Positions 26,294 through 41,709 of a stretch of DNA of 64,000 nucleotides are shown here, one piece after another. The notes under the pieces were generated by a model. That model was given only the letters and a program-made list of their open reading frames with translations, was not told the DNA's origin and did not search any database. A program made the position numbers and the translations under genes. Where the stretch lies: contig CAZWPT010000016.1 of the NCBI GenBank assembly GCA_964635675.1, positions 18,522 through 82,521 on the forward strand, in the 5' to 3' direction. This DNA comes from an uncultured Nitrososphaerota archaeon (GTDB taxonomy: Archaea > Thermoproteota > EX4484-205 > JAAOZP01). Numbering within the stretch: the first letter of the stretch is position 1; the number at the start of each line of letters is the position of its first letter.

Positions 26294-26321
26294 ACAGGGA
26301 TAAGTTGGCAGGTGGCTCACC

Positions 26322-27833
26322 ATGGCCGGCGAGACCCGTGTCGCGATAATAGGCGCCGGAGTCATAGGGGCCTCTATAGCCAGGGTTTTAAGCAGGTTTG
26401 AAAACCTGCAAGTGTATGTTTTAGAGAAAAACTATGATGTTGGAGGAAGCGCCAGCAGGGCTAACACTTCAGTAATACATCCGGGTCACGAAGAGGATCC
26501 TGATACTCATCCTTTGCGCGCGAGACTCTGCGTCGAGGGCAATGCCTTGTGGCGGAGATGGTGCAGTGAGCTAGAGGTCACGGCTAAATGGGTCGGCGAG
26601 CTCATGCTGTTCGAGAGGGGTGAGGAGGAGAAGGAGGCTGAGAAGTATGTTGAACTTGCCCGTAGGAACAAAGTCGGCGGCGTAAGGATTGTTCAAGGGA
26701 GGGAGTTGCTTGCGATGGATGAATCCGTCAACAGGAATGTTGAGGGAGGCGTTTACGCGCCTACGGCGGGCCTAATCTCCCCTTTTGAAGCAGTAGTGGC
26801 TTTGATCGAGAACGCTGTTGACAATGGTGTTAAGCTTTTCACCGAGACGCATGTAAAGAGCATCGTCGTCAGAAACAGTACTGTCGTAGGTGTTGATACG
26901 AATAGTGGGTTTATTGAGGCGGACATCGTCATCAATGCGGCTGGACTGAATGCTGACGAAGTGTCGCGTGCCGCAGGGGTTGAACCCTGGTTCAAAATAA
27001 AGCCCAGGAAGGGCGAATACATAATTTTCGACAAAGACGCCGAGCCTAGGCCTAGGCTCGTGCTGCACACAATGCCCTCAACCATTACGAAAGGGGTTTA
27101 CGCCTTAACAACGGTCCACGGCAACCTGATGATAGGCCCGACTGCTAAGGACCTGGACTATGATTCTAAGGAAGACACGTCCACGAGCTCGGAAGGCTTA
27201 GATTACCTGATGAAGGAGGCTGGGAGAATTTTTGCGAAAACCCCCTCACGTTCCCAAATAATCAAGTTTTTCGCTGGATTAAGGCCTGAACCCTCTGACG
27301 GAGAATGGCTTATAAAAGCATACTTTGAACCATACGGCTTCATAAACGTGGCAGGCATAAGGTCGCCGGGGTTAACAGCTGCACCCGCAATAGCCTATTA
27401 TGTCTCAAGCCTCCTCTCTGAGACATACGGTTTTAAACTTGTTGAGAAACCGGGTTGGAAACCTCTAAGGAGAAGAATTACTCCAGTCAGCGAAATGGAT
27501 TACGCTAACCTCGACAAACACATAGGGGAAAATCCAAATTATGGTGAGATCGTATGTTTCTGCAACAATGTTTCAAGAGCTGAGATCTCAGAAGCCATTG
27601 AGAGAATGCGGACAATCGGCGTCAAGACAGTGACCTTCGATGGCGTAAAGCTTAGGACGACAGCCGGCTTCGGCAAGTGCCAAGCTTCAAGATGCAGGAT
27701 ACGGGTTGCCCTCCTGATATCTGAAGCAACCGGGATCCCCCTGTGTCGCGTCGCTTTGAAAAGGTCTAGCATTGGTATTGGAGGGGTTAAGACGCTTTGG
27801 ATGGAGAGGGAGGGGAATGCGCAGGATGCTTGA
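26322..27833 (+). CDS. glpA: anaerobic glycerol-3-phosphate dehydrogenase subunit A-like FAD oxidoreductase with a C-terminal BFD-like [2Fe-2S] domain
   Basis: 503 aa with the N-terminal FAD motif VAIIGAGVIGASIA and a C-terminal BFD-like Cys pattern (CFCNNVSRAEISEAI...GKCQASRC). It is 28 nt downstream of glpK. Confidence 0.8.
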   Translation: MAGETRVAIIGAGVIGASIARVLSRFENLQVYVLEKNYDVGGSASRANTSVIHPGHEEDPDTHPLRARLCVEGNALWRRWCSELEVTAKWVGELMLFERGEEEKEAEKYVELARRNKVGGVRIVQGRELLAMDESVNRNVEGGVYAPTAGLISPFEAVVALIENAVDNGVKLFTETHVKSIVVRNSTVVGVDTNSGFIEADIVINAAGLNADEVSRAAGVEPWFKIKPRKGEYIIFDKDAEPRPRLVLHTMPSTITKGVYALTTVHGNLMIGPTAKDLDYDSKEDTSTSSEGLDYLMKEAGRIFAKTPSRSQIIKFFAGLRPEPSDGEWLIKAYFEPYGFINVAGIRSPGLTAAPAIAYYVSSLLSETYGFKLVEKPGWKPLRRRITPVSEMDYANLDKHIGENPNYGEIVCFCNNVSRAEISEAIERMRTIGVKTVTFDGVKLRTTAGFGKCQASRCRIRVALLISEATGIPLCRVALKRSSIGIGGVKTLWMEREGNAQDA

Positions 27834-29076
27834 GCAGGAGTATGATGTCATCGTCATAGGCGGTGGGCCAGCCGGATTGTCTGCAGCAACCAAGGCTGTT
27901 GAAAAAGGTTTGAAAACAATGCTTCTTGAAAACAGGGAGATGCTTGGCGGTATTCCTCTTCAATGCATCCACACGGGTTTCGGAGTGCATTGTTTGAAGG
28001 AGGATTTGACTGGAACCGAGTTTATAGCCAGGCTTATAGATAGGGCGGAGAGGCTAGGCGTGGAAAGCCTGGTGAGGACCCATGTCCTATCGATTAACAT
28101 CGAATCCCTCCGGGAGAAGACTGTTTACGCTGTCAGTCCTAAAGGCCTTTTAAAAATACGTGTTAAAGCAATAATATACGCTGCCGGCGCTAGGGAAAGA
28201 CACCAGTTTGAGGTTGGGCTGACCGGTGATAGGCCTGACGGTGTTTACACGGCGGGTGAGGCTCAGGCGCTCATGGATGTTTATGGCGTCCTACCCGGTA
28301 GGAGAATAGTAATCCTAGGCTCCGGGGACGTTGGGCTGATAATGGCTAGGAGGTTTGCCATGGAGAAGGCGGAGGTAAAGGCTGTGATAGAGGCCCTGCC
28401 CTACCCGGGTGGCTTGACTAGAAACGTCGTTCAATGTCTCCAAGACTTCGACATACCTCTCTACCTGAGTCACATGGTTCGAGAAGTCAGGGGACATGAC
28501 AGGGTTGAGAAAGTCGTCGTCACGAGGGTTAACGGAGAAATGAAGCCTGTGGAGGGGTCTGAATTCGAAGTAGAGTGCGACACTCTAATTGTTTCCGCAG
28601 GGTTAAGGCCGGATATAGACCTTCTGGAGAAAATGGGTGTTAAAACAGACCCGGCTACCGGAGGGCCTGTAGTGAACGAGTTCTACGAGACCAGCTTACC
28701 GCTGGTTTTCACCGCAGGCAATGCTCTCGTCATAAATGATCTCGTGGATTACGATGTGGAGCAGGGCGAGGCTGCGGCAACATTTGCCTCAAAGCTTTTA
28801 GATAACTACGAGACCCCGACCATAAATTGGAGACAAGTATACAGGGGGAGGAACATTAGGCTGGTTGTGCCCCAGCTCGTCAGCGGAACAATGGATGTTT
28901 TGTTCTACGCTAGGGTTCAACATCCAGAAAATAACGTGAACATTACTATTCGGGAAACAGGTTTTAAAAGAAGGCTTCTCAGGGTTAAGCCGGGAGAGAT
29001 GATTAGGATAAGGGTTCCAGTTGAAGAACTGGCAGGATTGAATGGAGAGAAGCTTATTTTCGAGGTGGTTGAATGA
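27817..29076 (+). CDS. FAD/NAD(P)-binding pyridine nucleotide-disulfide oxidoreductase (GlpB-like partner of GlpA)
   Basis: Carries DVIVIGGGPAGLSAA and a second dinucleotide motif RIVILGSGDVG. The start is probably Met16 of the track ORF (27817). It overlaps the glpA 3' end. Confidence 0.6.
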   Translation: MRRMLEQEYDVIVIGGGPAGLSAATKAVEKGLKTMLLENREMLGGIPLQCIHTGFGVHCLKEDLTGTEFIARLIDRAERLGVESLVRTHVLSINIESLREKTVYAVSPKGLLKIRVKAIIYAAGARERHQFEVGLTGDRPDGVYTAGEAQALMDVYGVLPGRRIVILGSGDVGLIMARRFAMEKAEVKAVIEALPYPGGLTRNVVQCLQDFDIPLYLSHMVREVRGHDRVEKVVVTRVNGEMKPVEGSEFEVECDTLIVSAGLRPDIDLLEKMGVKTDPATGGPVVNEFYETSLPLVFTAGNALVINDLVDYDVEQGEAAATFASKLLDNYETPTINWRQVYRGRNIRLVVPQLVSGTMDVLFYARVQHPENNVNITIRETGFKRRLLRVKPGEMIRIRVPVEELAGLNGEKLIFEVVE

Positions 29077-29459
29077 CCAGGATTGAGGAGTATACCTGTA
29101 TAGTCTGCCCAGCAGGATGCTTGTTGAAAGTCTTGACCGACCAGAATCATATTGTAAAGGTGGACGGTGCAGGATGCCAAAGGGGGGTTGAGTATGCCAG
29201 CCAGGAGTTTTCCGATCCTAGGAGAATGGTTTTCACCGTTATCAAAGTTAGAAACGGGGAGCTGCCAACGGTCTCTGTAAAGACGAGCAGGCCAATACCC
29301 AAGAAGCATGTTTTCACCCTGATGAGAATGCTGGCGTCGATAGAGTTGGAGGCTCCTGTCGAGATAGGGGATGTTGTTTTAAAAGACGCGTATGGCGCCG
29401 ACGTGATTGCTACAAGAAGGGTTGGCAGGCTGAAGAAACCGGTTTGCTGCTCCGATTGA
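29073..29459 (+). CDS. DUF1667-domain small Cys protein (third subunit of archaeal GlpA-type complexes)
   Basis: 128 aa with the N-terminal CIVCPAGC...GAGCQRG. It overlaps the preceding gene by 4 nt (ATGA). The arrangement of glpA, a NAD(P)-disulfide oxidoreductase and DUF1667 is known from Thermococcales glycerol operons. Confidence 0.6.
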   Translation: MTRIEEYTCIVCPAGCLLKVLTDQNHIVKVDGAGCQRGVEYASQEFSDPRRMVFTVIKVRNGELPTVSVKTSRPIPKKHVFTLMRMLASIELEAPVEIGDVVLKDAYGADVIATRRVGRLKKPVCCSD

Positions 29460-29524
29460 AACTTTTCAAGTTTTTACTTGCAGGCTAATAAAAATTAATA
29501 TAAGGATGATGGTGCAAGCAACAC

Positions 29525-30616
29525 ATGGGTTTAGAGAAATCTTTAGAATGGATTGTTGAAGAAGCTAAAAGGCTTGTCGACAAATCCATGTTGAAGGCTT
29601 CAGACGGAACGGTGCTTTTCAGGCCAGACGGTGGGGGAAACTATAACGCGCTTTGGACGAGAGACTTCTGCTACATGCTTGAAGGCCTCCCTGGCCATAT
29701 CGCGCATGACGACGCTGTTAAAGCCTATTTCTTAATACTCAGGGGTCAGAGAGAAGACGGTGCAATACCGGATAGGGTGGACGCAGACGGGAAACCCTAT
29801 TATAATGTTTTAGGAACAAGCCCTCCGACCGACAACCCCCAGTTCGCGGTTAAGATCGCTTGGGAAATATGGCGTTCCTACGGGGATATTGCCCCCTTCG
29901 CCCAGACTTCAAGAATGCTGACGAAAGCCTTACGCTCTCTCCCTTTAAAGTCGGATCTAGTCTGGATTGACCCGAGCAGCCCGCACTCAGCCTACGGCTT
30001 TACGGACTGTATTGCTAAAACTGGAGGGGAGCTCTTTTCCTCACTACTCCTGTATGAGGCGCATGTTAAAATGGCTGAGCTTTATCAAGCCATTGGGGAA
30101 ACGGTTGAGGCCAGGATGCATGAGGCTGAGGCGCGTAGAGTAAGAAAGGCCCTGGAAAGACTCTGGTCTGGGGAAGGCTATTTCTTCGCAGCCTCTGAAG
30201 ACTGTAGGCAGCCAGACGTATGGGGGTCTGCATACTCGGTATGGATAGGGGCGGTTGACAATCAGAGAGCCCTAGAGGTTTCCCGATGGCTTTCAAGCCG
30301 GTTCAGCAGGATAGTTAAGTGGGGGCAGGTGAGACACCTGCCTGAGCCATGTTTCTGGGAGAAAACGCTTACTGAAGTTGAGCCCGGCACCTATCAGAAC
30401 GGTGCCTACTGGGGAACAGCTTCAGGATGGGTTGCCTACGCCATATCTCTCACCGACCCTCAACTGGCTGAGAGAATGGTGATGAGCCTCGTTGATTTCT
30501 GTAAGTCGGAGGGGAAAGCCTGGGAATGTGTAAACCTGGGCTACAGGAAGTGCCCAGACTACGTGGCTACTTTAGCCTGTCCTTCAGCCCTGGTTGAAAA
30601 GCTGAAAACAAGCTAG
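29525..30616 (+). CDS. hypothetical protein, possibly an (alpha/alpha)6-barrel glycoside hydrolase-like
   Basis: 363 aa. The WTRDFCYM and W-rich segments are reminiscent of six-hairpin glycosidases. There is no firm family assignment. Confidence 0.3.
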   Translation: MGLEKSLEWIVEEAKRLVDKSMLKASDGTVLFRPDGGGNYNALWTRDFCYMLEGLPGHIAHDDAVKAYFLILRGQREDGAIPDRVDADGKPYYNVLGTSPPTDNPQFAVKIAWEIWRSYGDIAPFAQTSRMLTKALRSLPLKSDLVWIDPSSPHSAYGFTDCIAKTGGELFSSLLLYEAHVKMAELYQAIGETVEARMHEAEARRVRKALERLWSGEGYFFAASEDCRQPDVWGSAYSVWIGAVDNQRALEVSRWLSSRFSRIVKWGQVRHLPEPCFWEKTLTEVEPGTYQNGAYWGTASGWVAYAISLTDPQLAERMVMSLVDFCKSEGKAWECVNLGYRKCPDYVATLACPSALVEKLKTS

Positions 30617-30695
30617 TCGGCGTTCTTCAAAACAGGATTTAAAATCGTAAGGCTGGCGGATTTCAAGCCCGGCTTGGAAAACTTCTTAGGCAAGT

Positions 30696-31802
30696 ATGCA
30701 GGGATTCCTGAGGAGAGGAGGGCCAGCCATGGAGGTTAGGGAAAGGATTGTAAGCGTTCTTAGTGGTAGAATGCCCGACAAGATACCTTGGCTAATATAT
30801 TCAAACCATCTCCCCAGGGGGAGTTTTGAACGTAGAATGAGGGAAATGGGGCTTGGGCTGGATGAAAGATGCAGCATCTACAGGATCTTTATGCCGAACG
30901 TGAGGATCGAGAGTAGAACAATCGGAGACTATGTTTACACGACTTACCGTACACCGGTTGGAGAGCTTCACTCCAAGACTCGGATTGGAATGAGATTCCA
31001 ATTCCCAGGCGGCTCCTGGACGGTTGAATATCCAGTCAAAAACACGGATGATGTTAAGGCTTTAAGGTTCATGATAGAGGATACTGTTTACGAGCCGGAT
31101 TACGAGAATTATGTTCGAATAAAGGAGGAACTTGGAGAAGACGGGATTGTCACTGTCTGGGCTGACTACACTCCTTTAATGAAGATAATCGTCAGATACA
31201 TGGGTTTCAGGACTTTTGCATTAATGTACCGCAAAAACCGCGGTGTGATAGAAGACCTGATCAACATTTTAGACGAGAGCTTCTCAAAAATGTACAGGAT
31301 TATAGCTGATTCGCCGGCGGAAATAGTTAGGATAGGCGACAATACTGATTCACTACTGGTATCCCCAAGCCTGTTCGAAAAGTACTGTCTCCCATACTAT
31401 GACAAGTATGCCGAGACCCTTCACGAGAAGGGGAAAATAGTTATTTCACACATGGATGGTAGGCTTAAAGCGCTTAAGAATCTGATTGCTAAAACTAGGC
31501 TTGATGCTATAGAGGCCTTCACACCCCCACCGGGAGGCGATTTACCGCCTAGAGAAGCCAAGGAGGCTTGGAGTGATAAAGCTGTATGGATGAATTTCCC
31601 GGAGGAAGTGTTTCTTAGAACCCCTGAAGAGATTGAACGCTATACCACTGCACTGCTTGAGGAAATAGCTCCTGGAGAAAGCTTCATCATAAGTGTTACT
31701 GAAGACATTCACCCTGAGCATTATAGAAAAGGGATTGAAACAGTAACGAAGACACTCTGCAGGTACGGCGGACTCCCTATAAAGCCGCCTTTAGCCGGCT
31801 GA
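30696..31802 (+). CDS. uroporphyrinogen decarboxylase (URO-D) family protein (the same family as MtaA/MtbA-type methylcobamide methyltransferases)
   Basis: 368 aa. The N-terminus RERIVSVLSGRMPDKIPW and the central and C-terminal regions fit URO-D/CIMS-like conservation (..SPSLFEKYCLPYY.., ..ISHMDG..). The true start is probably MEVRER (30729). Confidence 0.5.
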   Translation: MQGFLRRGGPAMEVRERIVSVLSGRMPDKIPWLIYSNHLPRGSFERRMREMGLGLDERCSIYRIFMPNVRIESRTIGDYVYTTYRTPVGELHSKTRIGMRFQFPGGSWTVEYPVKNTDDVKALRFMIEDTVYEPDYENYVRIKEELGEDGIVTVWADYTPLMKIIVRYMGFRTFALMYRKNRGVIEDLINILDESFSKMYRIIADSPAEIVRIGDNTDSLLVSPSLFEKYCLPYYDKYAETLHEKGKIVISHMDGRLKALKNLIAKTRLDAIEAFTPPPGGDLPPREAKEAWSDKAVWMNFPEEVFLRTPEEIERYTTALLEEIAPGESFIISVTEDIHPEHYRKGIETVTKTLCRYGGLPIKPPLAG

Positions 31803-31952
31803 CTGGAAGCCTAGTTCACCAGAGTAGCGAAGCATGGAAAGTAGACAAGCCTAGACGGTTAAGTATACAAGTGGAACCCGTGAATAGGAAAAATGTTTTC
31901 CCTTTCACCAAAAAGTTAAAATATTTTCAACATCTCATTGTAACGATGCAAA

Positions 31953-32708
31953 ATGGGAATAGCACTGCAGCTTTACTCGGTGCGTGAAGACTGCGCTAAG
32001 GATTTTAATGGAACCCTTAAGGCGGTTGCCGAAATGGGTTATGAAGGCGTTGAGTTCGCCGGATATTATGGTAGGAGCGCCGAAAACCTTAGGAGTATTC
32101 TTGACGACCTCGGTTTGAAAGTGGCTGGAACACACATCGGCGTAAACACCCTGCTAGGTGAAGAGTTCGACAAGACTGTAGAATTCAACCGCATCCTAGG
32201 AAACAGGTTTCTAATAATTCCTGGTCTACCGGCGGAAATGCTGAGCTCAAAAACAAAGTGTCTCGAAACAGCCGGCTTGTTCAACGATATTGCTAGAAGG
32301 CTTAGGAAAGAAGGGATGAGGATAGGCTATCATAATCACATGGCTGAGTTCAAAAAGGTTGACGGGGAGAGAATATGGGACCTGTTTTTCAGCTCCACCA
32401 TCCCCGAGGTGGTGATGCAGCTCGACACTGGGAACGCGATGCACGGGGGAGTGGATGCGGAAGGCGTTCTGGAGATCATCCGGAAGTACCCTGGCAGAGC
32501 CGTAACCGTGCATGTGAAAGAGTATTCCTCTAAAGACCCTAAGGCGGTGGTTGGAGAAGGGGAAATGAGGTGGCGTGAATTCTTCGAGCTGTGTAAAACA
32601 ATTGGTGGAACCGAGTGGTATATTGTTGAGCAGGAGAGCTATGCCTACCGGCCTCTCGAATGCGTGAAGCGCTGCCTAGAAAACCTTAGAAGAATGAGGC
32701 TTGTGTAG
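31953..32708 (+). CDS. sugar phosphate isomerase/epimerase (xylose isomerase-like TIM barrel)
   Basis: 251 aa with the N-terminal GIALQLYSVRED...GYEGVEFAGYY typical of AP endonuclease 2 / xylose isomerase-like TIM proteins. Confidence 0.7.
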   Translation: MGIALQLYSVREDCAKDFNGTLKAVAEMGYEGVEFAGYYGRSAENLRSILDDLGLKVAGTHIGVNTLLGEEFDKTVEFNRILGNRFLIIPGLPAEMLSSKTKCLETAGLFNDIARRLRKEGMRIGYHNHMAEFKKVDGERIWDLFFSSTIPEVVMQLDTGNAMHGGVDAEGVLEIIRKYPGRAVTVHVKEYSSKDPKAVVGEGEMRWREFFELCKTIGGTEWYIVEQESYAYRPLECVKRCLENLRRMRLV

Positions 32709-32853
32709 GGTCCTTTTTCAAAATCAATTTTAAACTATTTTTAAAAGCCTAAATCAATCGTCTTCGCGTGTTAGAAAGCAATTTAGAATACTAAAGTTTA
32801 AAAAGACACATTAAACTTTAAAATCTTAGAAGATTGGAAGGAGGAATGCGTAA

Positions 32854-33642
32854 ATGAAGATATTGTACGAATTTATTCCGAAAGCAGACTTTTTAATTTT
32901 AGCGGAAGAAATAAAGGATTTAGTAGATGGTTTTAACATCACCGATAGTGCAGGGGGAATACCTGCTCCCAGCGCTACTGCAGTAGCCTGCGCGGTTAAG
33001 ATAAAGTATCCTCAAAAAATAATAATTCCAATGCTTATTACTAATTATAAAGGACCGGTTGAAATTGCTGCTGTAGCAAGTGCTTGTGAAGCCTTAGGAA
33101 TTTACGGAATGGTACCTGATCCGGGAGATGCTCCCAGATACGGATACCCAATAAGGACGAGAAAAGACGGAACCTGTGAAATTCTTTCCGATAAGGAGGA
33201 GATTGAAAGATTTAGGCGTGAAACTGGTCCTGCAGAAGAGGTTAGAGATTTCCTGCGTAATACCGTGAAGATTAAAAAGTTGAAATTAGGCTGTCTCTTA
33301 ACTAGTCGCAGACCTACGCAAGAGGCAATTGCACGCATAAGAGACGCTTGGGATTTCTCCCTTTTTCTGCGGTTAGAAAAGAGCTCTCTACCAAAGTTAA
33401 AAGAATTGGCTTTGGAGTGTAAAAACTTAGGAAAACCCATTTATCCATATTTTGTGGTTGAGACACCTAAAAATAAAAAGATTCTGGAAAGAATCGGATG
33501 GCCTTCTACAACAACCCTGGAAAAAGCGGAAGAATTTTTAGAAGAGCTTCAAGGAGTAGTAGACGGTATAATTTCTACTTGTCTGGGAGATATTGAGGCA
33601 GATAAAAAGTTGCTTAATAAACTGCAGAAATTTAGAGAATAA
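32854..33642 (+). CDS. methylenetetrahydrofolate reductase (MetF/MTHFR)-like protein
   Basis: 262 aa. The LYEFIPK motif matches MetF SFEFFPP and NITDSAGG matches VTYGANSG, and the layout matches the MTHFR TIM barrel. The gene is markedly AT-richer than its neighbours and is preceded by a strong bacterial-type SD (GGAAGGAGG). Confidence 0.5.
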   Translation: MKILYEFIPKADFLILAEEIKDLVDGFNITDSAGGIPAPSATAVACAVKIKYPQKIIIPMLITNYKGPVEIAAVASACEALGIYGMVPDPGDAPRYGYPIRTRKDGTCEILSDKEEIERFRRETGPAEEVRDFLRNTVKIKKLKLGCLLTSRRPTQEAIARIRDAWDFSLFLRLEKSSLPKLKELALECKNLGKPIYPYFVVETPKNKKILERIGWPSTTTLEKAEEFLEELQGVVDGIISTCLGDIEADKKLLNKLQKFRE

Positions 33643-34061
33643 GACGGGGAGAGATAAGAGAGAAAAATTTATTTTGGCGACGCAAGCTAGATCGCAACTT
33701 AGAGATAGCTAAACATCTCAAAAAAAATCCTTGGAAACGGGAGAGGGGAAGCCCTCTGGAAGATGAAGGTTCTGTCGGAGCACGCGACCCATGCGTAGAA
33801 TTGCCGAGGAAAGAGATGATTACTGAGCCGAATTAAAGCTCGCTACAACATTTAATGATTTTATTTATAGTATCGATGCGTGAAAACAATGGAGGATAAG
33901 CGTGCTAACGCCTAGGGGTTGAATTTTCATATCTCTATGGATTGAAAGGAACCTGAGACATATAGAAGTCATTAAAAGGCTGATGGCGTAGAGCGCCCCA
34001 TAGTCTCAGAAAGCCTTAAATGTTGGCTGTTTGTCATGCATGGGAAAGGAGGCGTTGAATA

Positions 34062-35798
34062 ATGCCGGTGAAAAAAAGCTGGCCGGTGCCGAGCGATATT
34101 GAAATCGCTTACAAAACCGAGCTTTACCCAATTAAAAAGGTTGCGGAGCATGCTGGGATTCTGGAAGAAGAATTGGAGCCCCATGGGAAATACGTGGCTA
34201 AAATCGATTATAGGAGCGTTCTCAACAGGCTGAAAAACAGGCCCAATGGAAAATTGATTATCGTAACTGCAATCACCCCCACGCCACTCGGCGAGGGAAA
34301 GACAACAGTCTCCATAGGTTTGGGCCAAGCCTTCTACGAAAGAGGTTTAAAGGTTATCAATACTCTGCGAGAACCATCTAAGGGTGTTACGTTTGGAATA
34401 AAGGGAGGCGCAACCGGAGGCGGCTACTCCCAAGTCCTGCCGATGGACAGGATTAATCTTAATTTCACAGGAGACATACCAGCGGTGGAAATTGCCCATA
34501 ACCTTTGTGCAGCAGCCATAGATGCTAGCATACTTCACGGAAACCCTTTAAGCATCGACCCCCTATCAATCGAATGGCCCTATTGCATGGATGTGGAGGC
34601 GAGGGCTTTAAGACGAGCCGTCATAGGATTGGGAGGAAGGTCAAACGGTTACCCTAGGGAGGCGCGCTGGAGCATAACTGTAGCGACGGAAACAGCGGCC
34701 ATTCACGCATTAGCCACTGGGCTGGAAGATTTAAGAAACAGGCTTGGAAGAGCTGTTGTAGCCTACACCTATAGTAGAAAACCGGTAACGTGCGAAGAGC
34801 TTGGAGTAGCCGGGGCCATGGCAGCTCTGCTCGTGGAAGCCATTAAGCCTAATCTAGTCCAATCCACAGAGGGCCACCCTGTTTTAATCCATGGATTCCC
34901 GTTTGCCAACATAGCGCATGGTACCAACTCGATAATAGCTGATCTAGTGGCTTTGAAGCTTGCGGATTACGTTATCTGCGAGACCGGGTTTGGCTCTGAA
35001 TGCGGCTTCTCCAAGTTCTGCGATATTGTATGCCGCCAGTCCCCCGAGATAAGGCCTGATTGCGCCGTCATCGTCTGCACGGTTAGAGCCCTTAAAGAAC
35101 ACGGCGGCGCCTTCCTGCTTAGCCCAGGAAAGCCCTATAAGAAGGTTAAAAGGGCGGCTGAGACGGAAAACCTCCAAGCGGTTGAAAAAGGTTGTGAGAA
35201 TTTAGCTAGACACATAGAAATAGTCCATAAATACGGTATTCCCGCCGTAGTAGCCGTCAACAGGTTTACCACTGACACTGAGAGGGAGATAAGGCTGGTG
35301 TGTGAAAAAGCCATTGAGGCTGGCGCCGATGACGTTGCCGTTGTAGACCCCTGGTCCAAAGGAGGGGAGGGTTGCCAGGAACTCGTTGACAAGGTTCTTG
35401 AAGCGATGAGGAAGCCGCGCGAGCTGAGGTTTCTTTACTCGGATGAAGCCACCATCAAGGAGAAAATAGAGACCATAGCTACAGAGCTCTATGGAGCTGG
35501 CGACGTGAAATATTCCCCTGAAGCAGAGGAAAAGATAGAGTTTTACAGTAGCCTAGGGTACGACAGGCTTCCGGTAAACATGGCTAAAACACCCCTCTCC
35601 CTTTCGCACGACCCTCTCTGGAAGAATGTGCCTAAGAACTACACGCTTCCAGTCAACGACATTTTCGTCTTCGTTGGAGCCGGCTTCCTTATCCCGATAT
35701 GCGGCGAAATACAGCTTATGCCCGGTCTCCCGAGGAAACCCGCCTTCCTAGGGGTCGACGTGGAAACGGAAACCGGAAGGATAAGAGGCCTCTTCTAG
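34062..35798 (+). CDS. fhs: formate--tetrahydrofolate ligase
   Basis: 578 aa with the FTHFS signature PTPLGEGKTT and full-length conservation. A perfect SD GGAGG sits 9 nt upstream of the ATG. Confidence 0.92.
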   Translation: MPVKKSWPVPSDIEIAYKTELYPIKKVAEHAGILEEELEPHGKYVAKIDYRSVLNRLKNRPNGKLIIVTAITPTPLGEGKTTVSIGLGQAFYERGLKVINTLREPSKGVTFGIKGGATGGGYSQVLPMDRINLNFTGDIPAVEIAHNLCAAAIDASILHGNPLSIDPLSIEWPYCMDVEARALRRAVIGLGGRSNGYPREARWSITVATETAAIHALATGLEDLRNRLGRAVVAYTYSRKPVTCEELGVAGAMAALLVEAIKPNLVQSTEGHPVLIHGFPFANIAHGTNSIIADLVALKLADYVICETGFGSECGFSKFCDIVCRQSPEIRPDCAVIVCTVRALKEHGGAFLLSPGKPYKKVKRAAETENLQAVEKGCENLARHIEIVHKYGIPAVVAVNRFTTDTEREIRLVCEKAIEAGADDVAVVDPWSKGGEGCQELVDKVLEAMRKPRELRFLYSDEATIKEKIETIATELYGAGDVKYSPEAEEKIEFYSSLGYDRLPVNMAKTPLSLSHDPLWKNVPKNYTLPVNDIFVFVGAGFLIPICGEIQLMPGLPRKPAFLGVDVETETGRIRGLF

Positions 35799-35990
35799 AG
35801 TGTCTGCCCACAATTCCTTCAAACATTACGAGCTGTGTGATGAAGCGCTTGAAAACCCGTGCAGAACATAACGCTCTTAGACTAGAGAGGCCGCTTTAGA
35901 AACAATCGTTGCGAGGCTCCTCAGCCTAACCATCAAGGGCTAAGTGTCCACTATGATTCTAAAAGTATAAAAAGGGGGTAGAGGAAAGGG

Positions 35991-36905
35991 ATGAGGATGT
36001 TCAGGTTTAAGCAGGAGCAGAAAATTTTTGATATTGCCGGCGTGAAGGTTGGTGGCCAGCCGGGTCAACTACCTACTGTAATGATAGGAAGCATATTCTA
36101 TGGTAAACAGAAAATATTTGAGGATGAGAAGGCTGGAGTGTTCTCTAAAGAGAAGGCTGAAGACCTCTTGAATAAGGAGGGGGAGATATCGGATAAAACC
36201 GGTAATCCGAGGATTGTAGACGTATGCTGCACATGGCCCCAGGCTTTTGGAAAACTCATCGAGTTCGTGGCTGACAAGATCGACGGGCCCCTCGCTATAG
36301 ACGGAACTACTGAGGAGGCGAGGATTGCAGGAGCCAGATACGTCGGTGAAGTCGGGTTGTCTGAACGCGTCGTCTACAACTCGATAATGCCGCATATTAA
36401 AGAGGCTGAGATAGCCGCGATTAGGGAGGCTAGGATCAAGTCCGCCGTCTTACTGACGTATAACGCTAAAAGCCCTACGATAGCAGGGAGAATGCAGGTG
36501 CTTGATGAGCTTTTAGCCTTAGCCTCGAAAGCTGGTGTCGAGAAAATCCTGGTGGATACGACTGTCCTCGACATCCCAGACCCGGGACCAGTCAGCAAAG
36601 TCGTCTACCTGGTAAAGGAGAAATACGGGTTACCAGCCGGGGCGGGAACGCATAACGCAGTCCAGAGGTGGAATAAGATGCGGAGAATGGATAAAACACT
36701 GTTCTCAATCGCAAGCAGCGTAGCCGACGTGCTTCCCATATTCATGGGGGCGAACTTCGTAATATATGGGCCTATAGACAATGCTTTAAACGCGTATTTC
36801 CACTGTGCACTGGCTGACGCTTACGTGGCTTACAGCATGCGGCAGGAGTTTGGAACAAGACCATTAACCAGCAACCATCCGTTGTTCAAAATATTCAAGG
36901 CATAG
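35991..36905 (+). CDS. MtrH/AcsE-family pterin-binding methyltransferase (methyl-THF/H4MPT:corrinoid methyltransferase-like)
   Basis: 304 aa. The N-terminus MFRFKQEQKIFDIAGVKVGGQPGQLPTVMIGSIFY closely follows the MtrH family start. Confidence 0.65.
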   Translation: MRMFRFKQEQKIFDIAGVKVGGQPGQLPTVMIGSIFYGKQKIFEDEKAGVFSKEKAEDLLNKEGEISDKTGNPRIVDVCCTWPQAFGKLIEFVADKIDGPLAIDGTTEEARIAGARYVGEVGLSERVVYNSIMPHIKEAEIAAIREARIKSAVLLTYNAKSPTIAGRMQVLDELLALASKAGVEKILVDTTVLDIPDPGPVSKVVYLVKEKYGLPAGAGTHNAVQRWNKMRRMDKTLFSIASSVADVLPIFMGANFVIYGPIDNALNAYFHCALADAYVAYSMRQEFGTRPLTSNHPLFKIFKA

Positions 36906-37046
36906 GGAGAACTCGACTAGCGGGATTGGGGTTGGCTTCAAACGTTCGCTTATGCCTGCTGACATTCCGAGTGATGGTTTTCGCTGGTCGTGTCAGCCAG
37001 CTAGAGACATGAGCGCTATTAAGCTTGTAGGCTTGGCAAAACTCTT

Positions 37047-37748
37047 TCAACACCTGTCTTGTAGGGGTTTCTCCTCCCCTCCGCGAAGTATCCTAGCCTT
37101 CCCGTGCTCAACTATGATTCTTCCTTCCTGGAAAAGACGGATCCCTTCCACCAAGGCTTCACCCTCAGCCTCTTGAACCCTCCTCTTCAAAGTCTCCTCA
37201 TCGTCATCTTCCCTGACCTCAACAGCCTTCTGTATTATTATTGGTCCAGCATCCATTTTCTCGTCAACAAAGTGGAGGGTGCAACCTGTAATCTTCACTC
37301 CGGATTCAAGCACTGCGCGATGGACGTTTAGGTCCCAGCCTAGAAAGGCTGGGAGAAGCGAGGGATGAATATTCATAATCCTATTCCTAAACTTTTTCAC
37401 GAACTGGGGGCTTAGGATCCTGTTATAACCTATGAGCAGCACGAGGTCAACCTTCCTACGCTCAAGCTCCACGGCGACCTGCATATCGTAATCCACAGGA
37501 TCCTTACCCTTAGGGTCTATGAATATTGCCTCTATACCGTTTCGTCTCGCCCGCTCCAGTGCGTACGCGTCCTTCTTATTGCTTATGAGACAGACTATTT
37601 CAGCATTCAATCTTTTGTCTCTAATAGCCTCCAGGATGGGCTCCATGTCGGTAGCGCGGGTTGATGCAAGTATACCTATTCTCAGCAACGCGCACACACT
37701 ACGAGGCCTCGGAGGCGCATTCCACCAGATTACGTATGATGGTCGCAA
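37047..37748 (-). CDS. purN: phosphoribosylglycinamide formyltransferase
   Basis: Formyl-transferase core (RIGILAS..., NIHPSLLPAFLG, HFVDEKMDAGPII). The track start (TTG 37748) overlaps the folD 3' end. The true start is probably near 37688. Confidence 0.75.
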   Translation of the reverse strand: MRPSYVIWWNAPPRPRSVCALLRIGILASTRATDMEPILEAIRDKRLNAEIVCLISNKKDAYALERARRNGIEAIFIDPKGKDPVDYDMQVAVELERRKVDLVLLIGYNRILSPQFVKKFRNRIMNIHPSLLPAFLGWDLNVHRAVLESGVKITGCTLHFVDEKMDAGPIIIQKAVEVREDDDEETLKRRVQEAEGEALVEGIRLFQEGRIIVEHGKARILRGGEEKPLQDRC

Positions 37749-38532
37749 CCGTCACCGGGCCCACCCCACCAGGAACCGGGGTTATCGCGGACACTTTTTG
37801 GGAAACGTTTTGAAAATCCACATCTCCCACGAGAGTGCCTTCGACGAAGCTGGTTCCAGCATCGATTACTACTGCGCCTTCAGCAACCATTTCGTCGGTT
37901 ATGAGCCGTGGGACACCGGTTGCAGAGATTAAGACATCCGCTTCCAGTGTCTTCTCGCTCAAGTTTTTAGTCTTGACGTGGCAAACGGTGACTGTTGCCA
38001 TTCGCGAGGTAAGCATCGCGAACAGGGGCCTTCCGACTAGTATACTGTTGTTCACGACGACAACATCAGCACTCTCAACGTTAATTCCATACCACTCCAA
38101 AATCCTAATCACAGCGTTTGCCGTCGCCGTGGGCCTGGCTTCCCGACCAGATAGCAATCTTCCAAGGTTTACCGGGTGCAGACCGTCAACGTCCTTCCTA
38201 ACGTCTAAGGCTTCCAATACGTTCAGCGGCGACACGTTTTTCGGAAGTGGTAGTTGAACCACTATACCATGAACACCTGTATCCTTATTCAACTCCTTTA
38301 TGAGCGAGATGAGCTCGGCCTCGGAAGGATTGTTAAGCTCATGCACCACTGCTCTCCCCCCTACAGAGTTGCAGGCTTTAGCCTTCATCTTAACGAAAGA
38401 ATCCTGGGCCTTTGAACCTGAAGCCTTTATAATGTGTAGTGATGGTGTGAAACCCAGCTTCTCGATCCTTGCCTTAGCCTCAGCCAGAATAGCGTCAGCC
38501 ACCGGCTTACCACTCAATATCCTAGCCGCCAT
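37699..38532 (-). CDS. folD: bifunctional methylenetetrahydrofolate dehydrogenase / methenyl-THF cyclohydrolase
   Basis: 277 aa. The FolD N-terminus ILSGKPVADAILAEAKARIE, VVQLPLPKNV and a C-terminal Rossmann domain are all present. Confidence 0.88.
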   Translation of the reverse strand: MAARILSGKPVADAILAEAKARIEKLGFTPSLHIIKASGSKAQDSFVKMKAKACNSVGGRAVVHELNNPSEAELISLIKELNKDTGVHGIVVQLPLPKNVSPLNVLEALDVRKDVDGLHPVNLGRLLSGREARPTATANAVIRILEWYGINVESADVVVVNNSILVGRPLFAMLTSRMATVTVCHVKTKNLSEKTLEADVLISATGVPRLITDEMVAEGAVVIDAGTSFVEGTLVGDVDFQNVSQKVSAITPVPGGVGPVTVATIIRNLVECASEAS

Positions 38533-38835
38533 CAGGAATCACCTTGGGCCCTTGTAAATCGTGAACCCCGACGCAAGAACCCTTGAAACGAGGGGGACGC
38601 ATCCACGTGTCCTGCTGAAGCCTACTTTCCAACCATGAGAGTTACGCCCATCTCTATTGCCAGCTTCATCAACCTTTACCAGTTCTCCAGCCAATGAGAC
38701 ATCGCGTCCTTCTCAAACACATGCGTCCTTATAAATGCTTCGATTCTGTTTCCCCCATCAGCCGAAATTTTATAAACCTTTAAAGCGCGAACCCCGGGAT
38801 GAGCAGCGCTTTCAACACGTGGGTTTCTAACGTTC

Positions 38836-40224
38836 ATGAAATGTTTTTATAGGGAACTTCTTTTGCAGTCGGGAATGAACGAGGGATCCGGCAACGCTAA
38901 GAATGAATTCAGGAAATTAGCGAGGGAAAGGATCCTAGCGATGTCGGGTCAGGAGAGGAAGGATAAGAGCTCAAAGGCGGTTTCGAATCTTAAAAGACTA
39001 GAGGAGTTCTCGAGGGCAAAGTGCGTCATGGTTTACGTTTCTAAAGAGGACGAGGTTGATACGATCGGGCTTATTACTGACATGTTGAAATCCGGTAAAA
39101 GAGTCGTAGTGCCTCTTGTTGATCAAGAAAGCGGGGAGCTGATTCCCTGCGAGATAACAACCCTTGAAGAACTAGTTGCCGGAACATTCGGCGTGATGGA
39201 GCCGGATCGCAAGAATGCGAGAATAGTTAGCACGGATGAGATAGACCTTGTGGTGGTTCCTGGGAGGGTTTTTGACAGAAATTGCAACAGGCTTGGCAGG
39301 GGAAAGGGCTACTTCGACAGGTTTTTAAAGAGATTTAACGAAGGGAAGAAAGTGATCGGTTTAGCCTTCTCCGAACAGGTTTTCGACAGTATACCGGTTG
39401 ACGAGAACGATGTGAAGGTTGACATCGTGGTTACTGAATCCAGCATCATACGGCGCGACCCTAGAGAACCGAGAGCGGTTTTAAGTAAAAAAACATTCGA
39501 CGTTCATAGGCTTGCCACCTCCTCCCTGTTCATGGCGCTCTTCATCGTGCTAAGGGCAGTCCCAGCCTTCCCAATCATAGGGGTACCTGGAGGAAGCTTC
39601 CCGGTTTCAGACGTCATTCTGCCGCTTTACGGCGTCTTGCTGGACCCCGTCCACGGCGCCACCGTAATCCTCCTGGGGACGATTCTAGGTTTCTTAATAA
39701 AGCCTCCTAGGTTCCTTTACCTAGACTTCCTACCACCGCTGGTTAACACTTTGACGGTAAGTCTGCTCTGGAGGAGGAAAACGTGGTTAGCAATCCTCAT
39801 CTATGTCTCCGCGTTAACCGTTTTCATGACGGGGCCGTTTAGCCTGCTCCTTATACACCTTGACCTTCCCGGCTTAGAGGTGGACTTGCCATTCCACTGG
39901 CTGCACCTCATCGCAATACCCGTCTCCCTGGTTCTCATTAGACTTGGCAATTTTAAACATAAGGCTGACCCAATATTATTGAAGCTTTCAGGATGCGCCC
40001 TACTCGGAACCATGGCGCAACACTCCACTGGTAGTGCGCTATTTGAATACGTGTTCGGCCTAACCGGAATGATTAACAGAGAAGGGTTTGAGAAAATCTG
40101 GTATACGGTCTTCTGGATATATCCTATAGAGAGGATGCTTCTAGTCCTAGCCAGCACGCTGGTTGGAGTACCAGCTACACGAGTACTGACTAGGATGATA
40201 TGGAGGCCTCAGAACCCGTCGTAA
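38836..40224 (+). CDS. 5-formyltetrahydrofolate cyclo-ligase (MTHFS) fused to a C-terminal roughly 240-aa polytopic membrane domain (ECF S-component-like)
   Basis: One uninterrupted 462-aa ORF. Residues 1-200 carry the MTHFS motifs (CVMVYVS, DLVVVPGRVFDRNCNRLGRGKGYFDRFL). Residues 225-462 form 6-7 TM helices with an ILPLYGVLLDPVHGATVILLGTILGFLI segment that resembles ECF vitamin S-components. Confidence 0.6.
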   Translation: MKCFYRELLLQSGMNEGSGNAKNEFRKLARERILAMSGQERKDKSSKAVSNLKRLEEFSRAKCVMVYVSKEDEVDTIGLITDMLKSGKRVVVPLVDQESGELIPCEITTLEELVAGTFGVMEPDRKNARIVSTDEIDLVVVPGRVFDRNCNRLGRGKGYFDRFLKRFNEGKKVIGLAFSEQVFDSIPVDENDVKVDIVVTESSIIRRDPREPRAVLSKKTFDVHRLATSSLFMALFIVLRAVPAFPIIGVPGGSFPVSDVILPLYGVLLDPVHGATVILLGTILGFLIKPPRFLYLDFLPPLVNTLTVSLLWRRKTWLAILIYVSALTVFMTGPFSLLLIHLDLPGLEVDLPFHWLHLIAIPVSLVLIRLGNFKHKADPILLKLSGCALLGTMAQHSTGSALFEYVFGLTGMINREGFEKIWYTVFWIYPIERMLLVLASTLVGVPATRVLTRMIWRPQNPS

Positions 40225-41537
40225 GGCTCACCCGACCATATCGGCCTTGCTTCCCCAACGGTGAAAACCGAGCCCGTAACCAGTATTCTACCTTCTTCCC
40301 CAGCGCACGATAATGCTCGAGCCACCGCCTCCCTAACAGTCGGCTTAGAACTGTATTTAGCATCCAGACTCTTCAAAACATCCTCCATCCTCTCAACCGG
40401 GAGAGCCCTCCCCATGACGCCATGCTGAGTCAGGATGAACTCGTCCGTGACCCTTGCAATAGACCGGAGAATCTTGTCATACTCCTTATCCGAGGAAATA
40501 CTGACGACTGTCTTAAACTTGGCTCCCGGCAGCATCTCCTCTATGCTCGACGACAATGCTTCAGCAGCCGCCGGATCCTTAGCGCAATCCAATATTACTA
40601 GGGGACGTTTACTAATCGGCTCCAGCCTCCCTGGCCAAACAATGTCGGCAAGACCCCTCCTTATGGCTTCCTCGTTAAAGTTTGATCCGCCAGTTAACTC
40701 GGAGAACTTGAGATAGCTCGCTATGGCCGTCGATACGTTCACCGCCTGAAAACTCCCCCTGAGCGAGACCTTAAGGTTCTTCAACAGCGTCTTCCCCAGC
40801 TCAATATCTAAAGTCATCCCGGTCAGGTCGGACCTTAAAACCCTGTGCTTGACATCCCTAGGTACCAAGGTGAGCTCTGAGCCCAATTCCCTGCAGCGTT
40901 CCTCTATGACTCTGAGCGCTGAGCCTGAACAAGCCGATACCGTGGGGCGTCCACGCCTTATTATGCCTGCTTTCTCAAAGGCTATTTTCTCAACAGTATC
41001 ACCCAAGTGCTTCATATGCTCTAAAGAGACGTTGGTTATTACTGAGAGCACAGGGTCGCATGCGTTTGTCGCATCGAGCCTGCCTCCCATACCCACCTCG
41101 ACGACGGCCACGTCAACTTTTTTCATAGAGAAATACTTATACGCCATCGAGACGTTACACTCGAAAAACGTTGGAAACCGTCCAAGCCTTTTCGAGACTT
41201 TTTCACCAGCCTCTTTAACCTCCTCATACGTCTCCACGACTTCCCTCCTGGTTATTTCCCGGCCATCCACAACTATCCTCTCGGTGAACCTGCATAGGTG
41301 AGGCTTCGTGAAAGTTCCAACCCTAAGACCCTCCTCGCGTAGGATTGAGCTTATCATGCTGACGGTGGAACCCTTCCCATTAGTACCCCCTACTAGGATT
41401 ACGGGATAGTCCTGCTCCGGGTTTCCAAGCTCGTTCAAAACCCCCTTGACAACATCCAAGCCTAGCTTTATCCCCCTCAGCTCGTAGAGCTCCTTGAGAA
41501 CCCGCAGGTACTCGGCGTCATCAGTCCAAGCACTCAA
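40209..41537 (-). CDS. folC: folylpolyglutamate synthase / dihydrofolate synthase
   Basis: 442 aa. It has the Mur-ligase P-loop VGGTNGKGST, and the FolC-type central and C-terminal domains are present. Confidence 0.8.
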   Translation of the reverse strand: MSAWTDDAEYLRVLKELYELRGIKLGLDVVKGVLNELGNPEQDYPVILVGGTNGKGSTVSMISSILREEGLRVGTFTKPHLCRFTERIVVDGREITRREVVETYEEVKEAGEKVSKRLGRFPTFFECNVSMAYKYFSMKKVDVAVVEVGMGGRLDATNACDPVLSVITNVSLEHMKHLGDTVEKIAFEKAGIIRRGRPTVSACSGSALRVIEERCRELGSELTLVPRDVKHRVLRSDLTGMTLDIELGKTLLKNLKVSLRGSFQAVNVSTAIASYLKFSELTGGSNFNEEAIRRGLADIVWPGRLEPISKRPLVILDCAKDPAAAEALSSSIEEMLPGAKFKTVVSISSDKEYDKILRSIARVTDEFILTQHGVMGRALPVERMEDVLKSLDAKYSSKPTVREAVARALSCAGEEGRILVTGSVFTVGEARPIWSGEPYDGF

Positions 41538-41709
41538 TTATTGAAGCGCCTCCTTTAGCGCGCCGAGGGAAACGCATCCTCTTCATCATTTCGTATCGGT
41601 GGAAATCGTCTTGTTTAAATGTCTTACTGAGACGTGTTGAAGCCGGGGAGCACCGGGTTTCATCGTTTCCCGCTCGTCGGAAGCACGCGCATCTCGACCA
41701 GGATGAGCC

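Follow-up and report, generated by a model that had tools for sequence, protein, structure and literature searches.

Gene content and base composition of the locus

The region between positions 32709 and 36905 of a 64-kb stretch of DNA (called the window in the following; all coordinates refer to it) belongs to a conserved tetrahydrofolate (THF) gene cluster, of which it makes up the 5' part. The DNA is that of a Brockarchaeota-like archaeon of hot springs; the genome loci closest to it, L004-L010, belong to metagenome-assembled genomes (MAGs) of Brockarchaeota/Thermoproteota. Three consecutive genes are found in the region, which encode a protein of 262 amino acids, whose family is here named P262, a formate-tetrahydrofolate ligase (Fhs) and a stand-alone pterin methyltransferase of the MtrH family; these and the surrounding features are collected in Table 1. 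An earlier note on this DNA had described the whole region as an AT-rich segment carrying MetF-like, fhs and MtrH-like genes, probably acquired as one module and provided with bacterial-type Shine-Dalgarno (SD) sites. The 262-aa protein, its origin and its possible place in the THF pathway are the main subject of what follows.

Base composition was evaluated by GC content at third codon positions (GC3) and by codon fractions within each codon family; a score based on mean log relative codon frequency was dropped, as it is confounded by amino-acid composition. The mean GC of the window is 49%. The 262-aa gene has a GC of 0.393. Its GC3 is 0.312, where 59 window genes have a mean of 0.546 (sd 0.059), and is the most extreme value among them (z=-3.98), whereas fhs (GC3 0.542, z=-0.07) and the MtrH-like gene (0.574, z=+0.46) are indistinguishable from background. 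The AT-rich stretch covers approximately positions 32709-33900, i.e. about 0.9-1.2 kb rather than 4.2 kb. AT-richness had also been attributed to both flanks of the 262-aa gene: this holds for the upstream spacer (Table 1) and not for the 419-nt spacer between this gene and fhs, whose GC of 0.432 is ordinary for intergenic DNA here. Compared with the other 58 genes, the 262-aa gene shows higher fractions of GGA (0.69 vs 0.24), AGA (0.53 vs 0.25), GAA (0.68 vs 0.40), TTA (0.36 vs 0.13), ATT (0.56 vs 0.27) and AAA (0.58 vs 0.44). Among the AAA, ATA and TTA codons that had been said to dominate it, ATA is the one that shows no enrichment (0.36 vs 0.48).

The identities proposed for the second and third gene were confirmed by curated models. 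Fhs scores 692.4 bits against NF010030 of NCBIfam (cutoff 652), in addition to the Pfam match reported in Table 1. The MtrH-like protein exceeds the cutoff of subfamily NF002142 (294 bits, cutoff 287), falls just below that of the mtrH equivalog TIGR01114 (269.2 bits, cutoff 271.4) and remains far below that of the MtgA equivalog NF047990 (264.8 bits, cutoff 550). No other mtr genes are present in the 64-kb window, the neighbours of the MtrH-like gene being fhs, purN and folD; by model score and by gene neighbourhood, the protein does not qualify as a member of an Mtr complex.

Fold, homology and conserved residues of the 262-aa protein

Searches with the 262-aa protein returned 670 homologues at E<=1e-3; the best 120 of these are 57-92% identical to it, nearly all exactly 261-262 aa long, and named "hypothetical protein". 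No description of the family was found in the full-text literature searched or in curated libraries. A scan of the genome collection identified 265 loci; this count is a minimum for the family, whose length is near-fixed and which occurs in over 12 bacterial and archaeal phyla. The best seven loci, 89-97% identical, are in hot-spring MAGs labelled Brockarchaeota, Thermoproteota, Thaumarchaeota or Nitrososphaerota. When the family profile was compared with 1.84 billion protein representatives, only 111 relatives were obtained, either about 225-262 aa long or fragments.

The AlphaFold2 model, calculated from a narrow family alignment of 26 sequences (A1), is an eight-strand (βα)8 TIM barrel with a pLDDT of 92.8 and a pTM of 0.90. 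Foldseek ranked MetF/methylenetetrahydrofolate reductase (MTHFR) structures first in the PDB, with TM-scores of 0.5-0.65, RutA and TrpA scoring alike. By itself, the predicted fold places the protein in the MTHFR/Mer/luciferase-like group and makes no choice among its members. Where the fold cannot decide, sequence profiles do, and they place the protein in the MTHFR superfamily. The profile of alignment A2, obtained by adding full-length distant members to A1 (26% mean column identity), matched only MTHFRs in the PDB, that of T. thermophilus at E=7e-7, followed by those of N. meningitidis, H. influenzae, yeast, E. coli and human. PF02219 was matched by 21 of the 45 family relatives (best 2.8e-17). 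PF00296, representing the Mer/luciferase-like family, was matched by none of them, and no chain of Mer or of the luciferase-like family (LLM) was retrieved by the PDB profile search at E<=10. Alignment to E. coli MetF by hhalign (with a sequence that agreed with 1ZP3 at 295 of 296 residues and was corrected at the remaining one) gave a probability of 91% and E=1e-6, with E6 paired to E28 and D92 to D120. In the evolutionary sense, the 262-aa protein is very probably a remote branch of the MTHFR/MetF superfamily. The term MetF-like used in the earlier note is justified as a statement of remote homology, by the A2 profile and hhalign, and not by any direct match to a curated model.

The consensus of A2 contains the motifs ExxP, HxRLxDxN and LxRGDxP, which we take to be MetF-like, and its RGD is aligned to LRGDPP of the T. 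thermophilus enzyme. Only E6, G35, G91, D92 and G146 are conserved at 90% or more in A2. E6 is located at the end of β1 (strand 2-6) and reaches this level in both A1 and A2; D92 follows β4 (strand 85-89); it does not vary in A1 and is conserved at 90% or more in A2. A catalytic acid and a pterin-binding acid (positions A and D) are shared by MTHFR, the flavin-independent Mfr and the F420-dependent Mer, the catalytic Glu being E28 in E. coli MetF, E9 in Mfr and E6 in Mer, and the pterin acid D120 in E. coli MetF and D96 in Mer (Gehl et al. 2024, PMC11094777). Two further MetF motifs are changed in the 262-aa subfamily, HLTC to MLIT and LRGD to PDPGD; in the hhalign pairing, H88 and R118 of E. 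coli MetF correspond to M60 and P90. The His and Arg lost through these changes are conserved in MetF, where they presumably contact FAD, as in the E. coli structure. Judging from these residues, the 262-aa protein may work without bound FAD and use another electron carrier. That it is a specific reductase of the step between methylene-THF (CH2-THF) and methyl-THF (CH3-THF) has about an even chance of being right.

Gene context of the P262 family

Open reading frames (ORFs) were called in 80 loci and clustered, and recurrent neighbours were annotated. The most complete context is found in an Acetothermia locus (L017) and in a Thermotogaceae MAG (L020), where P262 is part of the co-directional string MttB-MttB-MeTr(Pterin_bind)-B12 corrinoid protein-RACo/AcsV-like activase-P262-Fhs; a third locus (L015) retains RACo-P262-Fhs. 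A 632-aa antisense ORF in L020 was discarded as spurious, the real gene at that place being RACo on the plus strand. The string of L017 and L020 covers the way from methylated substrate to CH3-THF fully, plus the last step to formate, and P262 holds in it the place of the enzyme interconverting CH3-THF and CH2-THF. No other candidate for the reductase step was found in these Acetothermia and Thermotogaceae operon loci, nor in the Brockarchaeota cluster within the 64-kb window.

Other bacterial contexts involve the same metabolism. P262 adjoins SHMT in Acidobacteriota, where a corrinoid protein follows downstream, and folD in a Gammaproteobacteria MAG (L045); L085-L087, from an AT-rich bacterium, have it flanked by canonical MetF on one side and FolD/FTCD_C on the other. 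In Actinomycetota and Dehalococcoidia (L021:978-5970, L029, L033) P262 is located within or beside a cluster made up of the small and large subunits of [NiFe]-hydrogenase, MetV, MetF and a maturation protease.

A shorter form, of 241 aa, is found in 37 loci of Bathyarchaeia and Hadesarchaea (L046-L083, e.g. L072:8001-8723). It is divergent to cofE in 21 of the 37 loci. CdhA (14 of the 37), cofD (10), a FbiB-C-like nitroreductase (7, by cluster membership), FrhB-like (6) and Mtd (3) genes also recur. In many Bathyarchaeia loci, cofD, the FbiB-C-like nitroreductase, FrhB-like, Mtd, CooC and CdhA occur within 8 kb. This context points to a role linked to F420 and tetrahydromethanopterin (H4MPT), and is relevant to the absence of mer/metF reported for some Bathyarchaeia (PMC8407382). 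Taken over all loci, the P262 family is strongly associated with one-carbon pterin metabolism.

The GC3 of the P262 gene differs by 0.13-0.22 from that of its neighbours in six loci (L032, L035, L021, L029, L036 and L080), which hints at repeated transfer among phyla.

Origin of the three genes

Neighbour-joining trees, which are distance-based, were calculated from 261 columns and 87 sequences with 200 bootstraps. The Brockarchaeota copies of P262 are monophyletic in 200/200 replicates and grouped with seven Nitrospirota/Thermodesulfovibrionales sequences in 197/200; they fall inside a bacterial clade, away from the Bathyarchaeia clade and the outgroup, in 196/200, and archaeal P262 sequences grouped together in 0/200. 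When the closest metagenomic homologues were added, two of them, one from an Omnitrophica-labelled MAG (P0003) and one from an AT-rich metagenome contig (P0002), were sister to the Brockarchaeota copies in 100/100 replicates, the next closest being from Nitrospirota.

The tree is paralleled by a 20-residue insertion (residues ~104-124 of the window protein), found in 36/36 bacterial and 8/8 Brockarchaeota sequences, as against 0/37 from Bathyarchaeia/Hadesarchaea and 0/6 from the outgroup. Composition is in line with both. In all Brockarchaeota copies, from the window and seven MAGs, the GC3 of P262 is 0.27-0.37 vs 0.51-0.57 for neighbouring genes, while in Bathyarchaeia it is host-like. The contig of P0002, the closest outside homologue, has a GC3 of 0.26-0.30, its other genes being at 0.26-0.27, which resembles the Brockarchaeota copies. 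Because tree, shared insertion and donor-like composition agree, an inter-domain transfer is indicated, and a bacterial origin of the 262-aa gene is considered highly probable. The pattern is that of a single transfer from bacteria to archaea, from an AT-rich donor and before the relatives diverged, with amelioration still incomplete.

No integrase was found among the annotated neighbours of the gene. A search for insertion scars yielded only two-copy repeats of 12-17 nt, which were taken to be at chance level and not retained. Chance alone would give some 0.1 exact 12-mers per 2 kb, and the two copies of the 17-mer do not lie on either side of the gene.

The other two genes have different histories. 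Outside the phylum, all of the named homologues nearest to Fhs come from bacteria, namely from Poribacteria (69% identity) and from Aerophobetes, Calescamantes, Chloroflexota and Dehalococcoidia (64-67%), the origin being judged here by best-hit taxonomy and not by a tree; given the native composition of fhs, any transfer must be old. The Fhs encoded beside P262 in bacteria is only 44-45% identical to that of the window, against 66-68% for P262, so the P262-fhs pair was not imported jointly from those lineages. For the MtrH-like protein, the named relatives that come nearest are from Bathyarchaeia (68-73%), Thorarchaeota, Hecatellales and Thermoprotei, besides a single Poribacteria entry, and by sequence it is assigned to the archaeal lineage of stand-alone (orphan) MtrH. 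Other sampled genes of the THF cluster, at whose edge the 262-aa gene lies, showed no compositional sign of recent transfer. With a foreign 262-aa gene, a bacterial-like and ameliorated fhs and an archaeal MtrH, the "module" turns out to be a mosaic that was put together in the archaeon. The idea of a horizontally acquired module is retained for the 262-aa gene, on tree, insertion and composition, and abandoned for its two neighbours.

Shine-Dalgarno sites and spacers

All three genes are preceded, 6-9 nt 5' of the ATG, by GGAGG-type sites with anti-SD duplex energies of -10.0 (262-aa gene), -10.0 (fhs) and -11.2 (MtrH-like gene) kcal/mol, in agreement with the earlier note. Such sites are not, as had been supposed, special to these genes. 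A dG <= -10 is reached by 8 of the 21 publicly called genes near the locus, namely glpA, glpB, DUF1667, URO-D, the three genes and folC, and at longest-ORF starts 11 of 58 genes have a dG <= -8, compared with 6.6% of random positions. Since many genes of host-like composition carry SD sites, these are uninformative on origin, and their use as a foreign signature was rejected after recomputation with the public gene calls.

The AT-rich spacer upstream of the 262-aa gene contains TATA-like TTTAAAA motifs and the SD sequence GGAAGGAGG, 9 nt ahead of the ATG. The spacer preceding fhs consists of two parts. The ~105 nt that immediately precede the fhs start codon are near-invariant in seven Brockarchaeota-like loci, whereas the remaining 200-300 nt are unalignable across the same genomes, about 110 nt of this variable part being common to the window and L004 only. 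The conserved element includes AAAGCCTTAAATG, which resembles an archaeal BRE/TATA (TFB recognition element and TATA box), plus a GGAGG SD. From its sequence and position, it most likely represents the promoter of fhs together with an operator and a short leader, and it could be the binding site of a regulator involved in folate or one-carbon control. RNAalifold predicted for the conserved 125 nt 5' of fhs a weak consensus structure of -10.3 kcal/mol with one compensatory pair. No Rfam family was matched across the window at the gathering threshold, and only chance-level matches appeared for positions 32650-36050 at E<=10; with this and the weak predicted structure, a riboswitch or other non-coding RNA in the long spacers was rejected. 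A scan for sigma-70 promoters and terminators gave results at or below shuffled expectation, the model being unsuited to an archaeon, and was set aside as well.

Neighbouring genes and related genomes

Positions and supporting matches of the features in and around the region are listed in Table 1. As the earlier note had it, the three genes stand next to folD, purN and folC: purN, folD, a fusion of 5-formyl-THF cyclo-ligase to the S component of an energy-coupling factor (ECF) transporter and folC directly follow. The S part of the fusion scores 30.2 bits against PF12822, just under the cutoff of 30.7, and 22 bits, below cutoff, against the FolT family TIGR04518; it is possibly involved in folate uptake. 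The fusion is kept in relatives at 84-92% identity, and the combination of a salvage enzyme with putative folate uptake is unusual.

Table 1. Annotated features of the region 32709-36905 and of the adjoining parts of the THF gene cluster
Feature	Position	Strand	Supporting evidence
URO-D family protein, weakly MtaA/CmuA-like	30696-31802	+	PF01208 63.6 bits; NF004889 38 bits, cutoff 244
AT-rich spacer 5' of 262-aa gene, 145 nt	32709-32853		GC 0.283 vs intergenic mean 0.422 (sd 0.069)
262-aa protein gene (P262)	32854-33642	+	no Pfam/NCBIfam match; remote MTHFR/MetF relative
Variable part of the spacer between 262-aa gene and fhs	33643-33956	.	unalignable across relatives (7 loci)
Conserved element of ~105 nt directly 5' of fhs start	33957-34061	+	near-invariant in 7 Brockarchaeota-like loci
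fhs, formate-tetrahydrofolate ligase, 578 aa	34062-35798	+	PF01268 755 bits, residues 11-578
MtrH-family pterin methyltransferase, stand-alone, 304 aa	35991-36905	+	PF02007 291 bits
purN, phosphoribosylglycinamide formyltransferase family	37047-37748 (public call starts 37697)	-	PF00551 170 bits
folD, methylene-THF dehydrogenase/methenyl-THF cyclohydrolase	37699-38532	-	PF02882 188.5 bits, PF00763 97.7 bits
5-formyl-THF cyclo-ligase fused to ECF-transporter S component	38836-40224	+	PF01812 143 bits, TIGR02727 164 bits
folC-type folylpolyglutamate synthase	40209-41537	-	Mur_ligase_M, Mur_ligase_C; PF27239 FOL3_C in precomputed calls

Upstream of the THF genes lie glpK, glpA, glpB, DUF1667, a glycosidase-like gene, the URO-D family gene and a xylose-isomerase-type TIM barrel. 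The URO-D gene is found two genes upstream of the THF cluster, in a synteny kept in all relatives; on its weak sequence similarity, its product may possibly be a corrinoid methyltransferase. Genes for a corrinoid protein, acs, cdh or carbon monoxide dehydrogenase/acetyl-CoA synthase (CODH/ACS), MtaB and MttB are absent from the 64-kb window, in which no tRNA was found either. The remaining part of the window contains mostly genes for sugar and fucose utilisation and housekeeping genes. Among the other genes are a HEPN/nucleotidyltransferase pair (45444-46417, minus strand), whose nucleotidyltransferase gene (45878-46417; GC3 0.42, z=-2.1) is one of three tied second compositional outliers, and a gene for a 191-aa protein (58628-59203, minus strand) matching Arrestin_N (PF00339, 35.1 bits, cutoff 24.9) and Rgp1 (33.8 bits), here in an archaeon of the TACK group.

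Three independent assemblies, two of them JGI metagenomes and the third from Logan, contain the identical contig. The gene order from glpK to folC is the same in seven related MAGs, in which proteins of the THF cluster are 84-97% identical to those of the window. At the DNA level, identity to related MAGs (L006-L009; positions 24800-41700) is mosaic, being 0.83-0.93 over glpK, 0.72-0.80 from glpA to the URO-D gene (26.3-32.3 kb) and 0.85-0.94 for the 32.3-41.3 kb part, up to and including folC; the MAGs are thus fairly close relatives. Identity at four-fold sites varies in the same way and is 0.6-0.85 for the THF cluster vs ~0.45 for glpA and glpB. This pattern suggests that the 26.3-32.3 kb block has recombined or has locally diverged faster. 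That Brockarchaeota had recently exchanged the THF cluster as a whole was considered and dropped, as glpK is also similar and the odd part is the 26.3-32.3 kb block.

Proposed route and alternative explanations

The THF pathway of the phylum has been published, and fhs, folD and MtrH are ordinary members of their families. For Brockarchaeota, the oxidation or assimilation of methanol and trimethylamine via corrinoid methyltransferases and a THF methyl branch has been proposed, in organisms lacking H4MPT enzymes and CODH/ACS, and an "undescribed protein" has been postulated to pass the methyl carried by the corrinoid protein on to THF (De Anda et al. 2021, PMC8065059). The earlier note had regarded such a route as unusual in an archaeon, where after this publication it comes as no surprise; the note's statement that the genes form a THF methyl branch is supported, the set covering, with folD, the way from CH3-THF to formate. 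On family membership and gene context, the following route is proposed. A methyl group bound to a corrinoid protein would be passed to THF by the stand-alone MtrH-family enzyme, a probable methyl-corrinoid:THF methyltransferase by sequence, for which THF rather than H4MPT is the presumed substrate. The 262-aa protein would interconvert CH3-THF and CH2-THF, with an electron carrier that may differ from that of MetF, and FolD would take the carbon on to 10-formyl-THF. Fhs would then release formate with a gain of ATP, unless the route runs in the assimilatory direction, and folC, the folate-type ECF component and 5-formyl-THF cyclo-ligase would serve the upkeep of the cofactor pool. Overall, the 262-aa protein is seen, with slightly better than even confidence, as a bacterial-derived MetF-like barrel that is placed at the edge of an archaeal THF cluster and serves the CH2-THF/CH3-THF step.

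A number of observations weigh against this assignment. The 262-aa protein itself matches no Pfam family, PF02219 included, at E<=0.1, and no NCBIfam model at E<=1; the narrow profile A1 has no PDB match and no significant hhalign match to E. coli MetF, and the fold search fails to separate MTHFR from luciferase-like/F420 barrels. The carboxamide of position C, the third of the positions shared by MTHFR, Mfr and Mer (Gln183 of E. coli MetF, at the end of β6), aligns to Leu172, adjacent to an invariant Arg173, although at such distance the hhalign pairing may be off by one or two positions. Canonical MetF adjoins P262 in at least six bacterial loci (L021, L029, L033, L085-L087), where P262 does not simply replace it and might serve another or an accessory function, and about half of the bacterial contexts are uninformative. 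The trees are not model-based, and with an MTHFR reported in 3 of 15 Brockarchaeota MAGs (PMC8065059), the genome of the window may have a canonical metF besides.

Several of these points would be accommodated if the 262-aa protein bound a reduced pterin without being a methylene-THF reductase, as a partner or accessory of MetF/MetVF, as a protein that binds or channels folate, or as a barrel using F420 or another cofactor in a different one-carbon reaction; its presence in THF clusters would then be due to a helper function. This explanation, which we regard as rather unlikely, agrees with the co-occurrence of the family with canonical MetF and MetV in Actinomycetota, Dehalococcoidia and the AT-rich bacterium, with the apparently non-conserved carboxamide and the altered HLTC and LRGD motifs, and with the pairing of the Bathyarchaeia form with cofE, cofD and FrhB; moreover, a MetF-like barrel whose function is unknown, PDB 3ijd, does no more than bind 5-methyl-THF. 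Against it, the catalytic Glu and the pterin Asp are near-invariant at 26% mean column identity, which argues for iminium chemistry rather than mere binding, and the Acetothermia/Thermotogaceae operons and the Brockarchaeota cluster offer, in the fetched loci and the 64-kb window, no alternative reductase candidate. There is also a known precedent in MetF paralogues that serve demethylation pathways specifically in the oxidative direction (MthfD preprint, 10.1101/537639).

As to origin, the possibility that 32709-36905 as a whole was recently taken up from bacteria as a single module, with AT-richness and SD sites as its marks, is judged very small. The bacterial derivation of the 262-aa gene, the bacterial relatives of fhs, the adjacency of P262 and fhs in some bacteria and the SD sites on all three genes count in its favour; the host-typical GC3 of fhs and of the MtrH-like gene, the low identity of the Fhs found beside bacterial P262, the archaeal relatives of MtrH (Bathyarchaeia, Thorarchaeota and Hecatellales), the equally strong SD sites ahead of glpA, glpB, DUF1667 and URO-D, and the lack of any tRNA, integrase or significant flanking repeat found there speak against it. 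Even less credit is given to an explanation of the low GC of the 262-aa gene without transfer, by selection on expression level or mRNA structure or by a chimera of assembly or binning. Low GC3 does occur in 8/8 Brockarchaeota copies, and is below that of every one of 36 sampled copies in bacterial genomes. However, the relatives are ~85-93% identical in DNA, which leaves too little time for amelioration, the closest outside homologues are in genomes of matching AT-rich composition, and the bacterial ancestry given by tree and insertion is independent of composition; the same junctions, furthermore, are seen in seven MAGs and three independent assemblies.

Significance

The locus documents a clean and datable case of an archaeal pathway cluster that has received a gene from bacteria. 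In addition, an unannotated barrel of the MetF superfamily, located in clusters with a gap at the reductase step, represents a concrete candidate that can be cloned, and the stand-alone MtrH is a named candidate for the "undescribed" corrinoid-to-THF methyltransferase of Brockarchaeota. In Bathyarchaeia, mer or metF was not recovered in several families, and an unknown alternative was invoked (Qi et al. 2021, PMC8407382). For Brockarchaeota, an MTHFR was recorded in only 3 of 15 MAGs (PMC8065059). We tentatively raise the possibility that the 262-aa family constitutes a fourth, widespread and so far unrecognised type of methylene-tetrahydropterin reductase, beside FAD-dependent MTHFR, flavin-independent Mfr and F420-dependent Mer. 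If so, it might, with the same reserve, fill the 'missing' MetF/Mer step of Bathyarchaeia, Brockarchaeota and other Wood-Ljungdahl or methylotrophic lineages; a division in which the bacterial and Brockarchaeota form acts on THF and the shorter Bathyarchaeia form on H4MPT, possibly with F420, is conceivable at a similar, rather low level of confidence. A reductase with a new cofactor dependence would change the energetics assumed for these organisms, while an accessory folate-binding barrel would mean a modest improvement in annotation.

Comparison with known systems

The 262-aa protein has in common with MetF/MTHFR (PF02219; 1ZP3 of E. coli, 3APT of T. thermophilus) the profile homology, the β1 Glu, the β4 Asp and a THF gene neighbourhood. 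It differs in length (262 aa vs ~290-300 aa), does not match the curated model, and has MLIT and PDPGD in place of HLTC and LRGD and, apparently, Leu172/Arg173 in place of Gln183. The insertion at 104-124 is a further difference from MetF and is absent from the archaeal relatives of the protein itself. With the flavin-independent Mfr of mycobacteria (8BGR, 7WMZ; PMC11094777) there is no match at the sequence level, and taxonomic range and gene context are other. Mer (1F07) and the luciferase-like F420 enzymes have no detectable sequence similarity and are alike in fold only; the 262-aa protein is ~60-70 residues shorter, and the context of Mer is H4MPT, whereas the Brockarchaeota copy is found in a THF context.

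The closest counterpart considered for the MtrH-like protein is MtgA of glycine-betaine-demethylating bacteria (NF047990), which likewise stands alone, without MtrA-G, among THF genes, and to which it aligns over the full length. In contrast to MtgA, the protein scores equally on archaeal mtrH, has archaeal orphan MtrH proteins as nearest relatives, and is encoded in a window with no MttB or corrinoid gene.

The scheme of De Anda et al. for Brockarchaeota concerns the same phylum and the same course, from methylated compounds through a corrinoid protein and THF to formate, with Fhs and FolD as common elements. The cluster described here differs from it in providing candidates for both of its gaps, the 262-aa protein and the stand-alone MtrH.

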